NCBI GenBank assembly: GCA_003173855.1
Contig: PPGI01000008.1
Coordinates: 10,119-74,118 of the forward strand
Origin: Candidatus Zambryskiibacteriota bacterium
GTDB taxonomy: Bacteria > Patescibacteriota > Minisyncoccia > Phycocordibacterales > DATDWN01
Length of the DNA stretch: 64,000 nt
Direction of reading: 5' to 3'
Numbering within the stretch: position 1 is the stretch's first letter; every line of letters begins with the position of its first letter. Positions 17,872 through 43,585 of this stretch are shown here, one piece after another. The notes below the pieces were generated by a model. The model saw only the letters and a program-made list of their open reading frames with translations, searched no databases and had not been told where the DNA came from. Position numbers and translations under genes: made by a program.

Positions 17872-18447
17872 ATGGAACAAGAAATATTAAATGAAGATGT
17901 AAAAGTTGAGGAAACAGGAGAAACGTCTGCTGAGGAAACTTCAGCACCTCAAACTCGAGAATTCAAGAAAAATCCTCGCAAATCCCAGCCTCGAAGAGAA
18001 GCTAGAACTCGGCCTGAATTTGATCAAAAAATCATTGATATTCGCCGTGTAACTCGAGTGGTTACTGGTGGTCGACGTTTTGCCTTCTCTGTAGCAATTG
18101 TCATTGGAGATCACAAGGGTCGAGTTGGTGTTGGTCTTGGAAAAGCAACAGACACTCCTCTTGCCATCGACAAAGCTGTGCGAGATGCAAAGAAAAATAT
18201 GATTAAAGTGAATCAAACTCAAAACGGTTCGATTCCTCACGAAGTTAGCGCAAAGTTCGGAGCGTCACGAGTTTTAATCATGCGAGCACCGGGCAAAGGA
18301 ATTCTTGCTGGTTCGTCTGTTCGAACAGTTTTGGAATTTGCCGGACTGAAAGAAGTAAGTTCAAAAATTTTCTCACGATCAAAAAATAAATTGAACAATG
18401 CTAAAGCTGCAATCCAAGCTCTAAAACAATTAACTCTAAAGAAATAA
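17872..18447 (+). CDS. rpsE: 30S ribosomal protein S5 with an acidic/basic N-terminal extension
   Basis: S5 core (VTRVVTGGRRF, GLKEVSSK); ~45-aa N-terminal extension. Confidence 0.93.
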   Translation: MEQEILNEDVKVEETGETSAEETSAPQTREFKKNPRKSQPRREARTRPEFDQKIIDIRRVTRVVTGGRRFAFSVAIVIGDHKGRVGVGLGKATDTPLAIDKAVRDAKKNMIKVNQTQNGSIPHEVSAKFGASRVLIMRAPGKGILAGSSVRTVLEFAGLKEVSSKIFSRSKNKLNNAKAAIQALKQLTLKK

Positions 18448-18448
18448 T

Positions 18449-18892
18449 ATGCAAGCACACACATTAAAAAGAGTTCACCCAAATAAAAAGCGCCGAATCG
18501 TCGGTCGTGGAGGAAAACACGCTAAAACTTCGGGTCGTGGTACTAAAGGTCAGAATGCCCGCGCAGGACACAAAAAACGTCCAGAAATAAGGGATTTTAT
18601 CAAACGATTGCCAAAGCTCCGAGGACGAGGAAAAAACATAAACACATCAATTGAAACAAAGCCACATGTTATTAATCTTTCCGCTCTGGATAAAAAATTT
18701 AAAGCAGGTGACATTGTTTCTCCACAGACACTTTTAGAAAAAGGAATGATTGGAACTGTTTCTGGTAAATTGCCAAAAGTAAAAATTCTTGGAAGTGGAA
18801 GCGTAACAAATAAATTGACTATTAAAGGTATGCGTGTTTCCGAATCTGCACGACTTGCACTTGAGAAAGCTGGTGGCACAATAGAGAAATAA
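18449..18892 (+). CDS. rplO: 50S ribosomal protein L15 (directly follows rpsE; no rpmD/L30 gene between them)
   Basis: 147 aa; L15-like Gly/Arg-rich N-terminus. Confidence 0.92.
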   Translation: MQAHTLKRVHPNKKRRIVGRGGKHAKTSGRGTKGQNARAGHKKRPEIRDFIKRLPKLRGRGKNINTSIETKPHVINLSALDKKFKAGDIVSPQTLLEKGMIGTVSGKLPKVKILGSGSVTNKLTIKGMRVSESARLALEKAGGTIEK

Positions 18893-28058: not shown

Positions 28059-28068
28059 TTTGTATTTG

Positions 28069-28451
28069 TGGAGATGGTGGTATCGAAACCACGTCCATAT
28101 ATAGAATTGAAACGAATCTACAGTGCTTAGGATATTTAATTGTTTAAAACACAAAGCTTAGAACAGCCAAAATACTTTGTATTCGAGTTCCTATTTTTCG
28201 GAAGTTTCCGGAACAAGGAACTTCTATAACCTCAATTTATATCAATCAACTTCTCGTATGAGATATGAGAGAAGCGACCGTCCCTTAGGCTAAAGCGTAA
28301 GAGAAAGTATAGGCTCCGTAAGGAGAAACTACACCCTTAGACAAGTTTTTTACACTTAATCTTTCCAAACCGTTTTAGGAGAATTTGGTGCTCCGCATTG
28401 CACGTATCAATGTCGAATATATGTCAAAACCTGTCATCCCCGCTCTTTGTA
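28069..28451 (-). ncRNA. ssrA: tmRNA (ssrA), ~383 nt
   Basis: 5' GGGGAUG pairs with 3' CAUCUCC, including the G3:U70 pair that marks alanine charging. tRNA-like T-arm (GUGG-UUUCGAUA-CCAC); discriminator A; CCA not encoded. Internal tag reading frame GCC UAU ACU UUC UCU UAC GCU UUA GCC UAA (AYTFSYALA*) at 28285..28314. Adjacent to smpB. Confidence 0.75.
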
Positions 28452-28688: not shown

Positions 28689-29132
28689 TTATTTGTCAGA
28701 GAACTCTCGACTGATCTCACGGTCAGTGTCACGCTTTTTGATTGTTTGTCGTTTATCAAATTTTTTCTTTCCGCGAACTGTTGCGAGACCAAGTTTCAGC
28801 TTGCGGCCTTTATTGTACACTGAAATTGGGATGATTGTCAAGCCCTTTGTACCTTCGTTTTTTGACAATTTAGTTAACTCTTCCTTTGTAAGTAATAATC
28901 TTCTGTTTCTATATGGATCGTAGTCAGCTGGAGTGTTATTTACTTGGTATGGTGGCACAAACATGCCTGTAACGTAAGCTTCATTTCCGCGGATAGTTAT
29001 GTAAGCTCCCTCAAGTGACCCTTTGCCAGATTTTAGAGATTTCACTTCAAAACCAAAAAGCTCAATACCAGCAGTATATTTATCTAGGATTTCGTAATTA
29101 AATTGCGTCTTGCGGTTTGTGACTAATGACAT
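28689..29132 (-). CDS. smpB: SsrA-binding protein SmpB
   Basis: 147 aa; SmpB-like (FNYEILDKYTAGIELFGFEVKS...). Confidence 0.92.
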   Translation of the reverse strand: MSLVTNRKTQFNYEILDKYTAGIELFGFEVKSLKSGKGSLEGAYITIRGNEAYVTGMFVPPYQVNNTPADYDPYRNRRLLLTKEELTKLSKNEGTKGLTIIPISVYNKGRKLKLGLATVRGKKKFDKRQTIKKRDTDREISREFSDK

Positions 29133-31758: not shown

Positions 31759-31807
31759 GCAGTGTTCACGCAAAAGGCCGGCAACCCGCCGGCCTTTCCT
31801 ATACATG

Positions 31808-31881
31808 TCCGCCTGCTTGGACTCGAACCAAGGACCCCAGAGGTATAAGCTCTGTGCTCTAACCAACTGAGCTACAGGCGG
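31808..31881 (-). tRNA. tRNA with anticodon UAU (predicted Ile, AUA-reading)
   Basis: Canonical cloverleaf: acceptor CCGCCUG/CAGGCGG; D-arm GCUC-AGUUGGUUA-GAGC; anticodon stem CAGAG/CUCUG with loop CUUAUAC; T-arm CUUGG-UUCGAGU-CCAAG; discriminator A; CCA not encoded. Confidence 0.75.
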
Positions 31882-35243: not shown

Positions 35244-35313
35244 TTTTTGCTATAGGTCGCGAACGTTTTTGTCTTAATGTGAAAGGGCAAGTCCGTAGAC
35301 CTGCCCTCTAGAC

Positions 35314-36306
35314 TTACTTTGTTGCGTGCACCTTCGGTCGGTTGGTGAAAGATGGATCGGCATCGATCGCGTTGCCCGACGGATTGTACACCGTTGGGCA
35401 ACTGTAGTTCGTGATTTTGTTCGTGATCATCTTGTCGTTGTTGCCTTGATCGGAGATTGCCGCAACATACGAGGTGTTGTAGCAATAGTCGTTTGTGATG
35501 GTGTTGTTCACGACTTTGTTGTTCGTCTGGTCGTCTGGAGCACTGATGCAGTCAGCAGCCACATTGGACAGATACGCTCCCACATCATTGTTTTTGAGCG
35601 TGTTCTGAACAATCTGAACCCCAGATACGAGAGCGCTTCCATAACAAGCTCCTCCAACTACCAGAATTCCGCCTGAAGCGGAACCATCACCGGGAAATCC
35701 GATGTAGGAATTTCCGCTTACAGTGTTTCTCATGACGGACGCTGATGCGGCGAAACCAACTTGGATGCCGTTCTGGGCAATGTAGTTTACATGCCCCTGA
35801 CCGATGACGTTGTTGTCGCTTACCGTTACCTGGGAAGCTGGACCGTTCACCACGACCCCGCCTTTTTGGTAATTGTAAATCGTGTTTCCGGAAACTTTTC
35901 CAGTCACGGCGCTCGTGTCCGAGAAACCACGGTAGTAGATGCCCACACCATGCTGGGTACCATTCAATGGCACTTCGCCGATGTCATGAATCGAGCTCGT
36001 CAAAACGTCAACCGAGACGATTCCAGCGTCGCCGTTCACTAGCACACCGAAATAGTTCGATCCGAAGATGTTTGCCGATTTCACCGTGCCGCCGACGCCT
36101 GCTGCGTCGTAGTAGATCGCCACGTTGCAGCCGGTCGAGTCGACATTTCCCGACACCGTGCCGACAGGATTGATAAGAGCCGCGGTCATGTTGATCGAGT
36201 CTCTGAAGAAACCAGTTGGCATGCAAGTTGCCGCCTTGATCGAAACCTCCTTGATGGAAGTTCCCATGAGAACAATTGCCAGTGCGAACACAAACCTTTT
36301 CATCAC
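35314..36306 (-). CDS. Secreted right-handed parallel beta-helix (pectate-lyase-fold) protein, GC-rich (~55%)
   Basis: Signal peptide; repetitive G/N/V/T-rich ~22-aa turns typical of beta-helix; GAGGAG SD; GC far above background. Confidence 0.55.
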   Translation of the reverse strand: MMKRFVFALAIVLMGTSIKEVSIKAATCMPTGFFRDSINMTAALINPVGTVSGNVDSTGCNVAIYYDAAGVGGTVKSANIFGSNYFGVLVNGDAGIVSVDVLTSSIHDIGEVPLNGTQHGVGIYYRGFSDTSAVTGKVSGNTIYNYQKGGVVVNGPASQVTVSDNNVIGQGHVNYIAQNGIQVGFAASASVMRNTVSGNSYIGFPGDGSASGGILVVGGACYGSALVSGVQIVQNTLKNNDVGAYLSNVAADCISAPDDQTNNKVVNNTITNDYCYNTSYVAAISDQGNNDKMITNKITNYSCPTVYNPSGNAIDADPSFTNRPKVHATK

Positions 36307-36377
36307 TCACTCCTCATTCAAATAGTACGGGTTTCCACCAGGAAACTCCGTAGCTAAATTTACATGTTATTTTACTC

Positions 36378-36707
36378 TTGTCAATGTGTAGAACTTGTGT
36401 TAAAAATATGATTATGAAATGGATAAAAAATAATTGGATCAAGCTCCTAGCAGTTCTAAGTTTGGCTGGAGCAATATGGGGCAATTTCCCATATGTTTAT
36501 TATCAACTAATGAATTGGATAGTTGTCGGTGCAGCAATTGTTACAGCAATGCAAGCATCACGCAAAAATAATATTGCAGTAATGTGGTTCTTTCTTTTTG
36601 TAGCAGTTATATTTAATCCTGTTGCTCCACTTTATTTAGATCAGAATGTTTGGAGAACAGTCGATATGGTTACAGGTTTAGTTTTTCTTCTCGCTTTGTT
36701 TGTCTAA
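36378..36707 (+). CDS. Small membrane protein (3 transmembrane segments), hypothetical
   Basis: Hydrophobic ORF followed by the bidirectional terminator at 36721..36746. Confidence 0.4.
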   Translation: MSMCRTCVKNMIMKWIKNNWIKLLAVLSLAGAIWGNFPYVYYQLMNWIVVGAAIVTAMQASRKNNIAVMWFFLFVAVIFNPVAPLYLDQNVWRTVDMVTGLVFLLALFV

Positions 36708-36756
36708 TTAAATGCAAAAAATCCCGGATCTCTCCGGGATTTTTTGTTTAACTTAA

Positions 36757-38143
36757 TTAATATTGAGAACTCCACTGTGCGGTTAGATTTCCAATACCAT
36801 TGTCGGCTACAACTTTAATTGAGATTATATCTCCTGCACTAAATGCAACATTGTGTGTTACATCTGAACAAGAACTTGCTCCGCTAGTGATTGTACACGT
36901 TACAGGCTGACTTACGCCATTTTTATCAACAGTGAACACGATATTTTTACCAGAGCCGCCGACATTAGAACTCAATCTCACAAAGAAGTTCTTTATTGTT
37001 CCTGCAACTGGCATTGCTACTTGCTCTGAGCTTTCAGTTGTTGAATTACTTCCAACAAATGTGCCCATGTATGTTGTAGCATTAGCTTGAACGCTTGCAC
37101 CACTGCCTCCACCTATAAATGAGATTCCGTTAGTTCCATTTATACCTGGGTTACCTTGTATTCCTTGGATACCCTGTATACCTTGAGAACCAGTGTCACC
37201 CTTATCTCCCTTTACACCCTGAATACCTTGGATGCCCTGTATTCCTTGATCTCCTTTATCACCCTTTGGACCAATAAGTGATGTTAACCATTGAGTTACA
37301 GTGCCACCAAAACTATTATCAACAGCAACTTGGTAAGCACTTTTTCCATCAACACCAGTGTCTCCTTTGTCTCCTTTATCACCCTTATCACCTTGAATTC
37401 CTTGTATTCCTTGATCTCCTTTGTCTCCTTTTAAGCCTTGTGGACCTTGAGAACCAGTATCACCTTTATCTCCCTTTGGACCTTGTGGACCAGTATCGCC
37501 GGTATCTCCCTTCAAACCTTGTGGGCCTGGTACACCTTGAATACCTTGTTCTCCTTTTTCACCTTGTTGACCAGTTTCTCCTTGGATTCCTTGCTCACCT
37601 TGAGCACCAGTCTCTCCTTTTTCACCCTGAACTCCTTGAATACCCTGATCTCCTTTGTCACCTTTATCTCCCTTTGGACCTTGGATTCCTTGTTGACCTT
37701 GTGGACCAGCAGGACCTATTGGACCTACATCACCTTGAGCACCTATAGGACCAGCAGCTCCCGTATCTCCTTTAGGACCTTGATCTCCGGTATCACCCTT
37801 GTCTCCTTTTTCTCCATTAGTTCCGTTTGTTCCAGGATCCCCCTTTGGACCTTGTGGACCAACTGAACCTTGTATACCTTGTGGACCTTGAGCACCAGTC
37901 TCTCCTTTAGGACCCGCAGGGCCTGTGTCACCAGTATCACCCTTTGGACCGGTTGCTCCATCAGCACCATTTTGACCAGCAGGACCGATTGGACCTTGGA
38001 TTCCTTGAATTCCTTGTGGGCCAGCAGGACCTTGAATATTTCCTACATCTTGGAAGTGAGTTAAATCAGTACATACATATAAATGTCCACCAATTAAATA
38101 TCCATCACCAATATTACATGATGAAGGTAGAAGGGAGTATCAT
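36757..38143 (-). pseudogene. Collagen-like (GxY)n protein, C-terminal segment: ~110 GxY triplets, a phage tail-fibre/BclA-like SAYQVAVDNSFGGTVTQWLTSL motif, and a C-terminal globular domain. The frame is open from 38143 with no ATG; it continues the 38094..38627 ORF after a frameshift
   Basis: In-frame GxY repeats traced by eye from 38041 to ~37100. The ORF-track entry 36757..37515 merely starts at an internal TTG. Confidence 0.6.
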
Positions 38144-38627
38144 CAAATGATCCGAGAATTTTTACACTTGTTCCAGCTTCTCCTTTTTCTCCTTGTGGAC
38201 CTTGTGGACCAGCAGGGCCTTGAGCACCTGTTGCACCAGGAGCACCATCAGCACCAGCCGGACCGGTTGAGCCTGTATCTCCTTTATCTCCTTTTGAACC
38301 TTGTATTCCTTGAGCACCTATTGAACCAGCAGGACCTGTGGCACCAGTATTACCAGTGTCACCCTTGTCTCCTTTTTCTCCTTGTGGACCGATAGGACCG
38401 ATTGGACCTTGTGGGCCGATAGGACCAGGAACTCCTTGAATTCCTTGTGGACCTTGTGGACCTGCAGGACCTTGTGGACCAACTGTTGAACCGACACTAA
38501 TAAAAGTATTTCCTGAACCAGTACACTGTGAGGCAGAACTTACAACCGTCACTTTTCCGTTCGGACTTGAAACACAAAGATTAATTGTTGTAGCAGATGC
38601 ATTTGCAAGTGGAATTAATGCAAACAA
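38094..38627 (-). CDS. Collagen-like protein, N-terminal segment (signal peptide + N-domain + ~40 GxY triplets), ending prematurely after a frame change
   Basis: [12 protein letters not shown] signal-like; [16 protein letters not shown]... repeats. The ORF ends in the non-collagen tail ...[24 protein letters not shown], while the GxY frame resumes downstream in another frame. Confidence 0.6.
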
Positions 38628-38938
38628 ACTTATTCCAGCAATCGTTGTGACAACCCTATAAGAAATTTTTTCATTGAAAATCTGTTTATAAAATTAATAA
38701 GCTACTAATAAATGAAATGCATCTCAGTGCATACTACATTATAAGAGGGTAGTGTCAAACCTATCGGAAATTCAAAAAAAATTGTAGAAAATCTATTTTA
38801 TCCACACATAATCCCCAAAAAATCGAGAATTTTCGTCAAATTCAGAAAAAATTTGAAAATTTTGTGATTTGCAAAAAATTTTGGATGTTATACTGACAAA
38901 GATTATAAATTAAATAGTAAATTAAAAAATAATTTTTT

Positions 38939-41113
38939 ATGATAAAAAATTTTCTGAGAATAATGTTTTCAGTAGGATTGTTCGGATTTGCAACGGTCGC
39001 ATTTGCTGGAACTGGAATTGGAACAACAGTTACGCTTCCTTCGACAGTTACAGTAGGTGATACTGGAGTTGCAGCAAGTATTCAGTTTGTTAATACATCG
39101 ACAGCACCAGATAATGTAAATACAATTTCTATTTCAAATATTACGTTGTCTACAACAGCAGGTAACACGGGTGTTTTTTCAATCAGTGCATCAGGTAGTC
39201 AGCATGCAGGTACTTCTTGTGGAGCAGCAAGCTTTACAATTACACCAGGTGCTCCTGGAACATGGACAGTTACACCAAATACTACTCTTCAACCTGTCGG
39301 CATAACTGGAACATGTCAGATTGATTTTACAGTTAATATTCTTTCATACCCTTCTACTGACGATAACGGAGCATTTGCTGGAACACAAGCATTCCTTAAG
39401 GTAAATGGAGATGCAGTTAATACTTTTACTGGGACACCAGGAAATGCTGCAGGAACAGGACAAACAACAGTTAGCAAAGCCTCACCTTCAATTGCAACAG
39501 TTCCATCAGCTGGTGGACCGGTTGGAACAGTATTAAATGATACTGCTACACTTTCTGGAGGAGCATCTCCTACAGGAAATGTGACATTCAAACTTTTTGC
39601 TCCATCTGATGCAAGTTGCTCTGCTTCAGCACTTTACACTGACACTGATGGATCAGCACCTTATGGAACAAGTCCTGGATTTACAAGTCTTGTAGCAGGT
39701 ACATATCATTGGACAGCAGATTATGCTGGAGATGCAAACAATAATGCAACTTCAAGTCCATGTTCAGCAGAAACAGTTACAGTTACAAAACGTTCTTCCT
39801 CTGTTACAACTACAATTCACGATGTTGGACATAATGCAACAACATCTGTTGCAGTCGGAACAGGAGTTCACGATAACGCAGTTGTTTCTGGGTCTGGACC
39901 AACACCAACAGGGACAATCTCATTTAGCATTTACCCAAGCTCAAGTTGTGCAGTCGCTTCAACAAGTTCACAAACTGTTGTATTAGTAGGTGGAGTTGCA
40001 GAAACAGGAACAACAACAGTAACTTCAACAGGTCTAGCTTACAAAGCATTCTATGCGGGTGATTCAAATTACAGTTCTTCAGTAGGAGATTGCGAAACTT
40101 TGCAAGCTGTAAAATTAACTCCAAATGTTTCGACGGATGTTCATAACTCACTTCATCAAATCGTAACAACAGTTCCAGCAGGTTCAATAGTTCACGACAG
40201 TGCAACTGTAACAGGTTCTGGAGGAACTCCTACTGGAACAGTTAATTTTACAGTCTTTCCAAATGGAGTTTGTACAAATGACACAGGAAGTCCAGCAGGT
40301 AGTCACGCATTAAATGGAAGTGGTATTGCTGATGGATCAAATCCAGAAGGGCCATTATCACCTGGATCGTATTCATTCATGGCAAATTACCTTGGTGATG
40401 ATACTTATCTACCTAAAACAGGATCTTGCGAGCCTTTAACTGTTGGCAAACAAAGTCCATCAATTTCGACAACATTATCGACTACAACATCAGTAACTAC
40501 AGGAACAGCAGTTCACGATAGTGCAGCACTTTCTGGTGCAACATCTGATGCTGGTGGAACAGTAACTTATAATGTTTATTCTGGTTCAGTTTGTTCTGGC
40601 TCACCAGTATTTACGAGCGGACCTCATACAGTATCACTCGGAGTTGTTCCAAATTCTAATAATTTCACATCACTTTCTGCCGGAACATACAATTGGCAAG
40701 CTATTTATTCTGGCGACGCAAACAATAACGCTACATCAAGCCCATGTCAGACCGAAATACTAGTTGTTACAGCTCCACCAGCAGGTCAGTGGTGTTCACA
40801 CGGATATTGGAAGCAATCACAACACTTTGATAGCTGGGTAGGATACTTGCCATCACAGTTATTCTCATCAGTATTTGAAAATGCATTTCCAGGAAAAACT
40901 CTACTTCAAGTATTGCAACAAGGTGGCGGAGGATTGAACGCACTTGGTCGTGATACAGTTGGAGAGCTTCTAAACACTGCAGCAGGATTGAATACAGGAT
41001 TTACTACAAGTCAGATAATTGCAAACTTTAGTGCAGTATTCCCAGGCTCAAACAGCCAATACGATACATTGCATGCAACGTTTGTAGCTCCTGAAAACTG
41101 TCCTCTTAACTAA
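38939..41113 (+). CDS. Large secreted protein (724 aa) of ~7 tandem Ig-like/'big' domains, Thr/Ser/Gly-rich
   Basis: Signal peptide; each ~100-aa repeat ends Y-x-(A)-x-Y-x-GD-x-N-x(2-3)-S-x-C-x-(T/E)-x-(T/L)-V; unique C-terminal domain. Confidence 0.65.
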   Translation: MIKNFLRIMFSVGLFGFATVAFAGTGIGTTVTLPSTVTVGDTGVAASIQFVNTSTAPDNVNTISISNITLSTTAGNTGVFSISASGSQHAGTSCGAASFTITPGAPGTWTVTPNTTLQPVGITGTCQIDFTVNILSYPSTDDNGAFAGTQAFLKVNGDAVNTFTGTPGNAAGTGQTTVSKASPSIATVPSAGGPVGTVLNDTATLSGGASPTGNVTFKLFAPSDASCSASALYTDTDGSAPYGTSPGFTSLVAGTYHWTADYAGDANNNATSSPCSAETVTVTKRSSSVTTTIHDVGHNATTSVAVGTGVHDNAVVSGSGPTPTGTISFSIYPSSSCAVASTSSQTVVLVGGVAETGTTTVTSTGLAYKAFYAGDSNYSSSVGDCETLQAVKLTPNVSTDVHNSLHQIVTTVPAGSIVHDSATVTGSGGTPTGTVNFTVFPNGVCTNDTGSPAGSHALNGSGIADGSNPEGPLSPGSYSFMANYLGDDTYLPKTGSCEPLTVGKQSPSISTTLSTTTSVTTGTAVHDSAALSGATSDAGGTVTYNVYSGSVCSGSPVFTSGPHTVSLGVVPNSNNFTSLSAGTYNWQAIYSGDANNNATSSPCQTEILVVTAPPAGQWCSHGYWKQSQHFDSWVGYLPSQLFSSVFENAFPGKTLLQVLQQGGGGLNALGRDTVGELLNTAAGLNTGFTTSQIIANFSAVFPGSNSQYDTLHATFVAPENCPLN

Positions 41114-41264
41114 TATTTGGACCAAAAAACTTATCAGTATACCTGATAGGTTTTTTGTTTGAATAAAAAGGTCGAATTATTAATAAGTTTTCATTTTTCA
41201 CTTTGAGTTCATTGTTTTCTATTAGAATGGTCCTCGTTCGTGTTTATAAGTTAATTAAATATAA

Positions 41265-41972
41265 ATGCAAAAATTTTTATCAAAATTAGCAATAACAGGG
41301 TTAATATTGGGCTCGATGGTTGGAATTGCTCAAGCAGCAACAAGTCCGGCTACAGCAAATGAATGTAAAAACGGCGGATGGAAAACTTTCACTGCTCCTG
41401 CATTCAAAAATCAAGGACAATGTGTAAGTTATGTTGAACACTTAAAGAAAAATCCACCACAAACTAACAATCTAACATGTTTTTCAGGTCCAACAGATCT
41501 TTCAATTTACGGAGGAACATGTTCGATAACTAATGGTGTGGCAACATTAAACAATTCTGATAGCAATCCAAATGGCGATTATTCGGGAGTTTATTATCCA
41601 ACAAATGCGTCTTCTGGACAGTTATTGAGTAGTATTACATCACTTGGATACACCTATTCAGGAACAGTCTCCCCAACGCCAGGAGATTTAAGCCTCAACA
41701 TTCCAGTTGATACAGATATCAATGGAACAACAGACGCTTATGCCTTTGTCGATGCATTCTATTGTCCGGGAACAGCTGGAACAGTGGATGTAATCCACGA
41801 TCCTGTCTGTGGAATCTGGGTAAATAGCATTGAATATCCAAATTGGGCAGCACTAATTGCAGCTAATCCAACATGGAAGGTCTCATCTGACGTGCCATTT
41901 ATCGTTGCAGAGAGAACGCCAAGTGAACCATCTGCAGTTTGGACAGTATCAAACGTTCAATTAGGACAATAG
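41265..41972 (+). CDS. Secreted hypothetical protein (235 aa, Cys-containing)
   Basis: Signal peptide AQA|A; no known motif. Confidence 0.45.
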   Translation: MQKFLSKLAITGLILGSMVGIAQAATSPATANECKNGGWKTFTAPAFKNQGQCVSYVEHLKKNPPQTNNLTCFSGPTDLSIYGGTCSITNGVATLNNSDSNPNGDYSGVYYPTNASSGQLLSSITSLGYTYSGTVSPTPGDLSLNIPVDTDINGTTDAYAFVDAFYCPGTAGTVDVIHDPVCGIWVNSIEYPNWAALIAANPTWKVSSDVPFIVAERTPSEPSAVWTVSNVQLGQ

Positions 41973-41990
41973 TTTAAACTAACAAATAAA

Positions 41991-42020
41991 AATAAAAATC
42001 CGCTTCAGCGGATTTTTATT
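41991..42020. terminator. Bidirectional terminator (aaaatccgcttcagcggatttt)
   Basis: Perfect hairpin with flanking A and T runs. Confidence 0.65.
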
Positions 42021-43455
42021 TTTTCACAACATGAAATCCAGGAGAAGGCTTAAAAACAGCCATTAGAACTCCCACGCCTTCCATAAAACTAAAGGCCGGT
42101 AAGAAAATAATTTGTGCCAAGTACCATTTTATTCTAGTAAAAATATTTGTAACACCATATTCATCTAGATTTGCTTTAAGTCCAATCAGATAAAGTGTAC
42201 CAAATGTTGCAAATGAAAAATTAGCTAAAAATCTAATTACAGGATTAATTTCTACTCCATAAAATAGATGCACCACTGTATACATAATTGCAAATGGAGC
42301 AACTGTCCATAAAAGGGTATTAATTCCCAAAGAAATGCGCCACTTAATATCTACTGGAGCGTGAATAGCTACTTTGGCTAAACCTTGATACCATCGACGT
42401 CTTTGTTTAACGAAATCTTCAACAGATTGTGTTGATTGTTCTTCAAGATAACCTTCTACCCATCGACATCGATGACCTCTTTCCATCGCCATAAGCGCCC
42501 AAAAAGCATCTTCAGTAATAGAACCTTTTGGGCCAAGATCAAACCCGATAGCTTTTTCAATATCATTTCGTACGACAATATATGAACCATGTAACCCGAA
42601 AATTGTAATTCCAATTCTGTGTTGAAGATGAAAACGTGCGAAATCATCACCAGTTCGGACATTGTCAGCAAGAGTTAAAAATGGATGTTTTTGCCATTTT
42701 CTGTGATAAAGTATTGCTCCTTGACCAATTCTTAATTCACCGGATTTTTCTTCTTCTGAAATCATAGCTGCTATTCCTTTTATTCCGGATGGTGTTGGTT
42801 GAGTTTCTTCATCTAAGTGCACGATCCAAGCATCATCAGGTAGTGTTGAATTTAAAGTTGCATAGTGAAGAGCTCGAGCTTTGTACAATGTATTGTTTGA
42901 AGTTCTGTAATCAGATGGGACAGTAATGTATCGGATATCATAATTTGGTGGTAAAAATTTTATGTTTTTTGTATCAGTAACAACTTCGATTACATATTTA
43001 AAAAGAGGAAGTTTAGTCATTTCCTTTTGACAACGTCTAACTGTTTCTTCTAGAGCTTCTATATTAGTACCTCTAGATACTATTCAAAAGGAAACCAGAT
43101 TATTAATTGGTTTAACACTATCTAGTTTTTCTGGATGGCGATACCGAAGCATTCCCATTAATCCAAAAGTTCCTGGAATGACTGCAGTAATCCAAACTAT
43201 GCTTAACCAGGCCCAAATTTTTTCGAAAATTGTTATAGCTTCTCGACTATTTGGCCAAATCCACATTTGAAGAAGATATAGGGCAATTGTTATTGAAATC
43301 ATCCAAAAAACCACTAATACCCGGTGTCCTGTAAGTAGACTAAAAGCCCAGTCTCTAACCGGTTCCTTTTTATGAACAGTTTTTGGTTTAACTCTAGGAT
43401 TTATAATCTCAGCCATTTTCCTAGGCGAGACAATTCGTATTGCTATTTCTGCCAT
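42016..43455 (-). pseudogene. Family-2 glycosyltransferase (processive type, QxxRW motif) interrupted by a single in-frame TGA at 43084..43086
   Basis: ORF 43084..43455 encodes 2 transmembrane helices. The 63 nt after its TGA are in frame and read IVSRGTNIEALEETV (start of the GT-A domain), continuing into ORF 42016..43020 (HLDEET, EDAFW, QRRRW, C-terminal transmembrane segments). Confidence 0.6.
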
Positions 43456-43585
43456 ATAAAAAACTCCCTATAGGAGCTCGATTCACACTAGCACATAATT
43501 ATTATTTGTCAATAGATAAATATGCTTAATTGATTTTTCAGAGGTTTAGATGTATATATAGGTAAATAATTTAAAAAATAAAAAA

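Follow-up and report, generated by a model that had tools for sequence, protein, structure and literature searches.

A collagen-like gene with phage tail-fibre-type modules, spread over three reading frames in a genome of Patescibacteria type

The window (the whole stretch of DNA that was analysed, 64,000 nucleotides) carries on its minus strand, at 38674..36757, one collagen-like gene of about 639 codons, with a promoter-like site 5' of it and a strong terminator 3' (Table 1). The gene is spread over three reading frames, not two. The natural ATG opens only a stub in frame 0. Frame 2, open from 38693 to 38094 (TAA at 38096-38094), holds the tail of a signal peptide, a small N-terminal domain and 35 GxY triplets, while frame 1, open from 38139 to 36757 (460 codons), holds 77 triplets, the sequence KSAYQVAVDNSFGGTVTQWLTSLI, 17 further triplets and a C-terminus of about 120 residues. 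A preliminary description of the locus had reported the minus-strand ORF at 38094..38627 (177 aa, starting from TTG 38627), a start-less frame downstream of it, and the motif KSAYQVAVDNSFGGTVTQWLTSLI (about 37344-37273) with more triplets after it and then a C-terminal domain (about 120 aa), all of which are present; the downstream frame opens at 38139 rather than at 38143, since TGA TGA stands at 38145-38140. Its triplet counts were too high: there are 129 in all (not about 150), with 35 rather than about 40 in the first ORF and 77 rather than about 110 ahead of the motif. Not one of the 129 has a broken Gly position. Collagen is the sole Pfam match in the fused protein (PF01391, E = 7.3e-62, 205.5 bits against a cut-off of 27.2), and runs of 35, 77 and 17 triplets that score above the Pfam cut-off place the protein among those with a collagen triple helix. 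The N-terminal domain has no Pfam, PHROG or homologue match.

Table 1. Features of the collagen-like gene and the block around it, in window coordinates.
Feature	Coordinates	Strand	Remarks
Promoter-like site, TTGACA-16 nt-TAGTAT	38731..38758	-	10/12, about 57 nt 5' of the ATG; consensus match only
Natural start ATG 38674 (MKKFLIG...), 14-codon stub, frame 0	38630..38674	-	stop at 38632-38630
Frame break 1	38654..38671	-	one base absent in ATG-AAAAAA-TTT-CTTATA-GGG; read from the sequence, exact site presumed
Signal-peptide remainder and short Cys-containing N-terminal domain, frame 2	38481..38653	-	cleavage at about ANA/SA
Collagen run 1, 35 GxY triplets, uninterrupted	38166..38480	-	
Interruption module 1, phage-tail-fibre-type, cut by frame break 2	38032..38165	-	phrog_3904, phage records
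Frame break 2	38131..38139	-	one base absent in TAC TCC CTT
Collagen run 2, 77 GxY triplets, uninterrupted	37339..38031	-	no ATG/GTG/TTG until TTG 37515
Interruption module 2, KSAYQVAVDNSFGGTVTQWLTSLI ("SAYQ" motif)	37273..37344	-	PHROG and phage-record matches
Collagen run 3, 17 GxY triplets	37120..37272	-	
C-terminal jelly-roll head domain, about 120 aa (37119-36760), and stop codon	36757..37119	-	stop TAA 36759-36757
Intrinsic terminator, 14-bp stem then T-run	36715..36746	-	10 nt past the stop; faces the convergent DUF6804 gene
Envelope block	about 35300-43500		beta-helix protein, DUF6804, collagen gene, 724-aa Big_3_5 protein, 235-aa unknown, GT2

Each of the two breaks is mended by one added base, and both shift the frame in the -1 direction. 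For break 1 the candidate runs are A6 (38671-38666), T3 (38665-38663) and G3 (38656-38654). One base added at 38671-38654 restores what, judged by eye, is a normal Sec signal peptide (MKKFLIGVV... or MKKISYRVV...). In the assembled sequence the ATG and the collagen stalk are in different frames, and the ORF from TTG 38627, which had been credited with both a signal peptide and an N-domain, has the N-domain but only the last 12 residues of the signal peptide, its n- and h-regions missing. A rare ATT start codon (MSYRVV...) could avoid break 1 and leave only one lesion. The leader of ATG 38674 is AT-rich and without a Shine-Dalgarno sequence, as are those of most other genes in the window. Break 2 has a possible range of 38139-38097, which homology narrows to 38139-38131 (ACT CCC TT), because ILGxFD reads in frame 2 and LPxxxxxGDGYLIxGHL in frame 1; the simplest repairs are C3 to C4 (38135-38133) or TT to TTT (38132-38131). 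The A5 run (38163-38159) first proposed as the place of the shift cannot be the site, because TGA TGA follows it in the downstream frame, and the supposed non-repeat linker around it is a conserved module of phage-tail-fibre type. Inspection by eye led us to reject an alternative genetic code in which TGA has a sense meaning, as frame 1 ahead of TGA TGA reads as a non-coding alternate frame of the collagen repeat.

Both interruption modules lead to phage tail fibres. With one base added, module 1 matches phrog_3904 (tail fiber) over residues 2-54 of the 54-aa query (E = 1.7e-10), and tblastn finds the whole query (100%) covered in 106 phage records. The repaired module is colinear, with no gap, with the tail fibre of Salmonella phage SA002 (GRSVTILGKFDNESQLPSVASNGDGYLINGHLWTWVDTAFVDVGVIQGP). 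It recurs in small collagen-like proteins (P0151-P0156), and a word-indexed protein search with the N-domain plus linker as query matched through the linker module only, in 210-aa phage-like proteins. The SAYQ module matches 12 PHROGs (best E = 3.9e-13), half of them tail fibre, tail assembly, tail protein or tail sheath families and the other six of unknown function, together with 491 phage records. To judge from these matches it is a common phage tail-fibre module, and its earlier designation as a phage tail-fibre signature holds up, although the relationship to BclA proposed along with it does not. Neither module gave anything significant against PDB sequences. Annotated tail-fibre genes stand in both sets of phage records, a homology that applies at the level of the modules only.

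Collagen-like tail or side-tail fibres of phages and prophages, such as the putative tail fibre QKE54632.1 of Salmonella phage vB_SalM_SA002, the "collagen repeats / tail fiber" proteins of Lactobacillus phages CL1, Ld17 and LL-K, and EPclA/EPclB of E. coli O157:H7 prophages (PMC3368898), have in common with this gene GxY segments broken by both short modules and a globular head at the end. The shared module patterns are ..ILG.FD...LP....GDGYLI.GHL......F.DVG.IQGP.. and ..SAY..AV..GF.GT...WL.SL.G.. For EPclA, a trimeric collagen fibre architecture has been shown experimentally (PMC3368898). Identity within the modules is only 47-70%, and the EPcl-specific domains PfN, PCoil and PfC are not detected in this gene. 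Where phage fibres have a virion-attachment domain at the N-terminus, this gene, with break 1 repaired, would have a Sec signal peptide, and unlike them it lies among chromosomal genes (RecG, FtsH, tmRNA, envelope proteins).

No Pfam or PHROG family includes the head domain, and a word-indexed protein search with the head as query gave no match. A first single-sequence structure model was too poor for use (pLDDT 62), but with an alignment of 48 relatives the domain is modelled as a jelly roll at pLDDT 94.6. The family to which it belongs has 5787 representatives in the representative library at E <= 1e-3 (and no Pfam model), and it comes in two arrangements, a single copy after a collagen stalk or three tandem copies per chain. 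In BFVD the best matches of the head are the C-termini of collagen-repeat proteins (TM 0.84-0.91, 26-38% identity). One of these, A0A6J5ST55 from an uncultured member of the Caudovirales, has the head (38% identity, TM 0.84) directly after collagen repeats, as here, and in Klosneuvirus, for which the TM is 0.91, two proteins (A0A1V0SJL1 and A0A1V0SIQ9) likewise have the head right after collagen repeats. Collagen proteins from three Acidobacteriota contigs (L001-L003) have heads 41-43% identical to this one; they are without both interruption modules, use triplets of the GPS/GAT type and come from high-GC genomes. The viral and Acidobacteriota proteins all differ from this gene in their N-termini, and every one of them is a single intact ORF. 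The second arrangement predominates among the best 150 of the 5787 representatives, where 130 have exactly three tandem head copies in about 400 aa. Such proteins (e.g. P0007, P0008, P0016) consist of the same domain of about 120 aa, at 30-40% identity, without a collagen stalk. Three tandem heads in one chain are probably single-chain pseudo-trimers, and the arrangement supports the idea that the head works as a trimer. Like C1q/TNF-type heads, the domain is modelled as a compact jelly-roll beta-sandwich, and it is C-terminal on a presumably trimeric stalk.

The gene would add to a known class, that of bacterial collagen-like surface proteins, here in frameshifted form. Outside GxY it shows no sequence similarity to BclA of the Bacillus exosporium or to Scl1/Scl2 of Streptococcus. 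Judged by eye it has, unlike BclA, neither GPT-type repeats nor an exosporium-targeting N-terminus; the SAYQ motif has no match among PDB chains, where those of BclA cover only its C-terminal domain. Membership of the BclA family was rejected, with homology in the C-terminal domain, GPT-rich repeats and the exosporium motif all lacking. Scl proteins have a globular V domain at the N-terminus and an LPXTG anchor, and the anchor is absent here.

The neighbours of the gene encode RecG, a secreted beta-helix protein, DUF6804, a Big_3_5 surface protein, a GT2 glycosyltransferase and FtsH, with a tmRNA gene near by, and a ribosomal protein operon lies elsewhere in the window. None of the neighbour genes scanned is annotated as phage; the surroundings are chromosomal, with no cluster of phage structural genes, and a prophage origin was rejected on this genomic context. 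A small DUF6804 membrane protein gene (36378-36707, plus strand) converges on the collagen gene, and the two share the terminator hairpin, which is bidirectional. The nearest relatives of RecG (78-80% identity) are from Minisyncoccia, Patescibacteria and Paceibacterota MAGs. Three relatives (L005, L006 and L009) keep synteny on the FtsH/SmpB side of RecG, and synteny ends at RecG. The collagen gene is absent from the RecG locus in all three, where other genes are found, and the whole envelope/secreted block at about 35300-43500 has no counterpart beside RecG there. This block of envelope genes is thus variable, and the collagen gene within it is accessory and specific to the lineage. The comparison with orthologues called for in the preliminary description found none to work with in any protein or contig collection searched (scans of GTDB genomes, JGI metagenomes and IMG/VR); these locus scans returned relatives at 41-43% identity at most, or none, and the 2.9 million viral contigs of IMG/VR held no close relative.

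Other parts of the window bear on the kind of genome. In the ribosomal protein operon, at 17872-18892 (plus strand), the S5 gene (end 18447) and the L15 gene (start 18449) are adjacent, and an L30 gene is missing between them; S5 followed directly by L15 is typical of the Patescibacteria radiation. The missing L30 and the relatives of RecG point to a Patescibacteria/CPR genome. Both S5 and L15 score under their NCBIfam cut-offs. The tmRNA gene (28068-28441, minus strand; predicted tag peptide VKNLSKGVVSPYGAYTFSYALA) adjoins SmpB (28689-29132) and FtsH. ARAGORN also reports a tRNA-Ile with the anticodon UAU (31807-31881, minus strand), an uncommon bacterial way of reading AUA.

The two long ORFs are pieces of one ancestral gene, as had been suspected, because a conserved module spans break 2 and because frame 1 runs for 208 codons before its first ATG, GTG or TTG (357 before its first ATG). 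Frame 1 is unique in this, with other real genes in the 64-kb window having at most 33 such start-less codons. That the module, once given its one extra base, aligns gap-free to phage tail-fibre proteins leads to the same conclusion, and the transcription unit, from promoter-like site to terminator, looks single and complete. The single shift first envisaged is not enough, given the second break at 38671-38654. The source annotation calls a gene here for a 252-aa product from TTG 37515 (P0002), which would fit two or three separate genes, one of them for a short secreted collagen protein and another, independent of it, for a collagen-plus-head protein. Such a reading is contradicted already by the conserved module divided between two frames and by the 208 in-frame collagen codons without a start codon 5' of TTG 37515; moreover, a signal peptide would be missing from the 252-aa product and the first ORF lacks n- and h-regions, and we give this reading next to no weight. 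The public 252-aa call is a fragment, and the locus should be annotated as a single gene, frameshifted and about 639 codons long.

As to why the gene is broken, the reading we somewhat favour is that it is a recent pseudogene, a secreted collagen-like fibre gene that two independent deletions of one base each have put out of action. The intact protein of about 639 aa, reconstructed solely from module homology, would have had a Sec signal peptide, a small Cys-containing N-domain, three collagen segments (35, 77 and 17 triplets) separated by the two modules, and the head. Deletion 1 (38671-38654) would part the ATG from the signal peptide, and deletion 2 (38139-38131) would cut module 1 and leave about 460 codons detached from every start codon; with both in place, therefore, no secreted full-length fibre would be possible. 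Set against intact homologues of the same domains, the frame is disrupted, by the split module and the uncoupled start, in the manner of a pseudogene. The lesions would be recent, because neither a stop codon nor a broken Gly position has yet arisen in the 129 triplets or the head. The principal competitor, a less likely one, is that the organism has an intact gene and that sequencing, assembly or polishing of this metagenome-assembled genome dropped one base at each of two short homopolymers. The same +1 correction serves at both breaks, short homopolymers are found at each (A6/T3/G3 at break 1, C3/T2 at break 2), and the gene is otherwise preserved, down to unbroken triplets and a head that models well; consensus calling from metagenomes is also weakest at strain-variable surface genes. 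No decay beyond the two indels is seen (no in-frame stop, no broken GxY), which fits an artefact equally as well as very recent or segregating lesions. Against an error of this kind, intact ORFs (35.4 kb in all) contain 115 A/T runs of at least 6 and no shift at any of them, for all of the 10 housekeeping proteins compared the match to the NCBIfam profile takes in 90% or more of its length, and the other genes checked in the window are all intact. Two random errors in a single 1.9-kb gene are improbable (expected <0.06). Nor are mis-mapping or collapse to be expected, since the breaks lie in non-repetitive parts and the DNA repeats within the gene are only 60-80% identical, on which ground repeat collapse in assembly was rejected. 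Two breaks in 1.9 kb of an otherwise clean assembly therefore suggest a cause specific to the gene, such as relaxed selection, of which two disabling lesions clustered in a dispensable surface gene are the expected product, and we infer that the genomic DNA itself carries the deletions.

Of the three options in the preliminary description, pseudogenisation and an assembly indel thus stand, while a slippage-regulated fibre has lost most of its basis. Regulated expression would here mean slipped-strand phase variation, programmed -1 ribosomal frameshifting or transcriptional slippage at both sites. It can draw on the A6 run right after the start codon of a surface-protein gene (a classic position for contingency loci), and on both shifts being -1 with the downstream frames fully preserved. 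But contingency genes have a hypermutable tract at the shift site, typically a homopolymer of at least 7-8 nt, whereas break 1 offers A6/T3/G3 and break 2 only C3/T2, the A5 run being excluded by the TGA TGA stops. An A6 run is moreover commonplace, the window having 110 A6 and 75 T6 runs (185), none of them shifted. Two independent switches would both have to be "on", and no single switch suffices. For programmed -1 frameshifting, no X XXY YYZ heptamer stands in the zero frame at either break, a stimulatory structure is likewise wanting, with downstream folds no better than shuffles (z = 0.18 and 0.88), and we know of no precedent for a frameshift two codons past initiation. Regulation of any of these kinds is improbable. 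A more speculative version, on which we would place still smaller odds, has the fibre as a host-attachment organelle of an episymbiotic Patescibacteria cell, built from tail-fibre modules, with the breaks as segregating on/off alleles; if true, this would be a low-grade contingency system in which cells shed an exposed fibre recognised by phages or hosts. Our approximate order is thus a recent pseudogene ahead of an assembly error, then phase variation or programmed frameshifting, with separate genes a distant last.

As a recent pseudogene, the locus would tell of a product that was a secreted trimeric surface fibre of an uncultured member of the Patescibacteria (of Minisyncoccia/Paceibacteria type). 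Its head, by analogy with C1q, TNF, BclA and phage fibre tips, probably nucleated trimerisation and bound a ligand, and the fibre probably acted as an adhesin, export, trimerisation and adhesion all being deduced from the predicted architecture. It would appear that a CPR bacterium has, or recently had, a Sec-exported collagen-like fibre that shares its modules and head with phages and giant viruses. The locus adds to the examples of exchange between the fibres of viruses and the surface proteins of cells, and these findings leave current understanding unchanged. In the three Acidobacteriota-type contigs, the gene for collagen repeats plus head is followed by one for a conserved membrane protein (L001 10371-12149, L003 647-2425, L002 1203-3644). 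This protein is multi-pass, has 592-813 aa and a C-terminus that is TPR-like, and may be a dedicated modifying enzyme or partner of the collagen protein.
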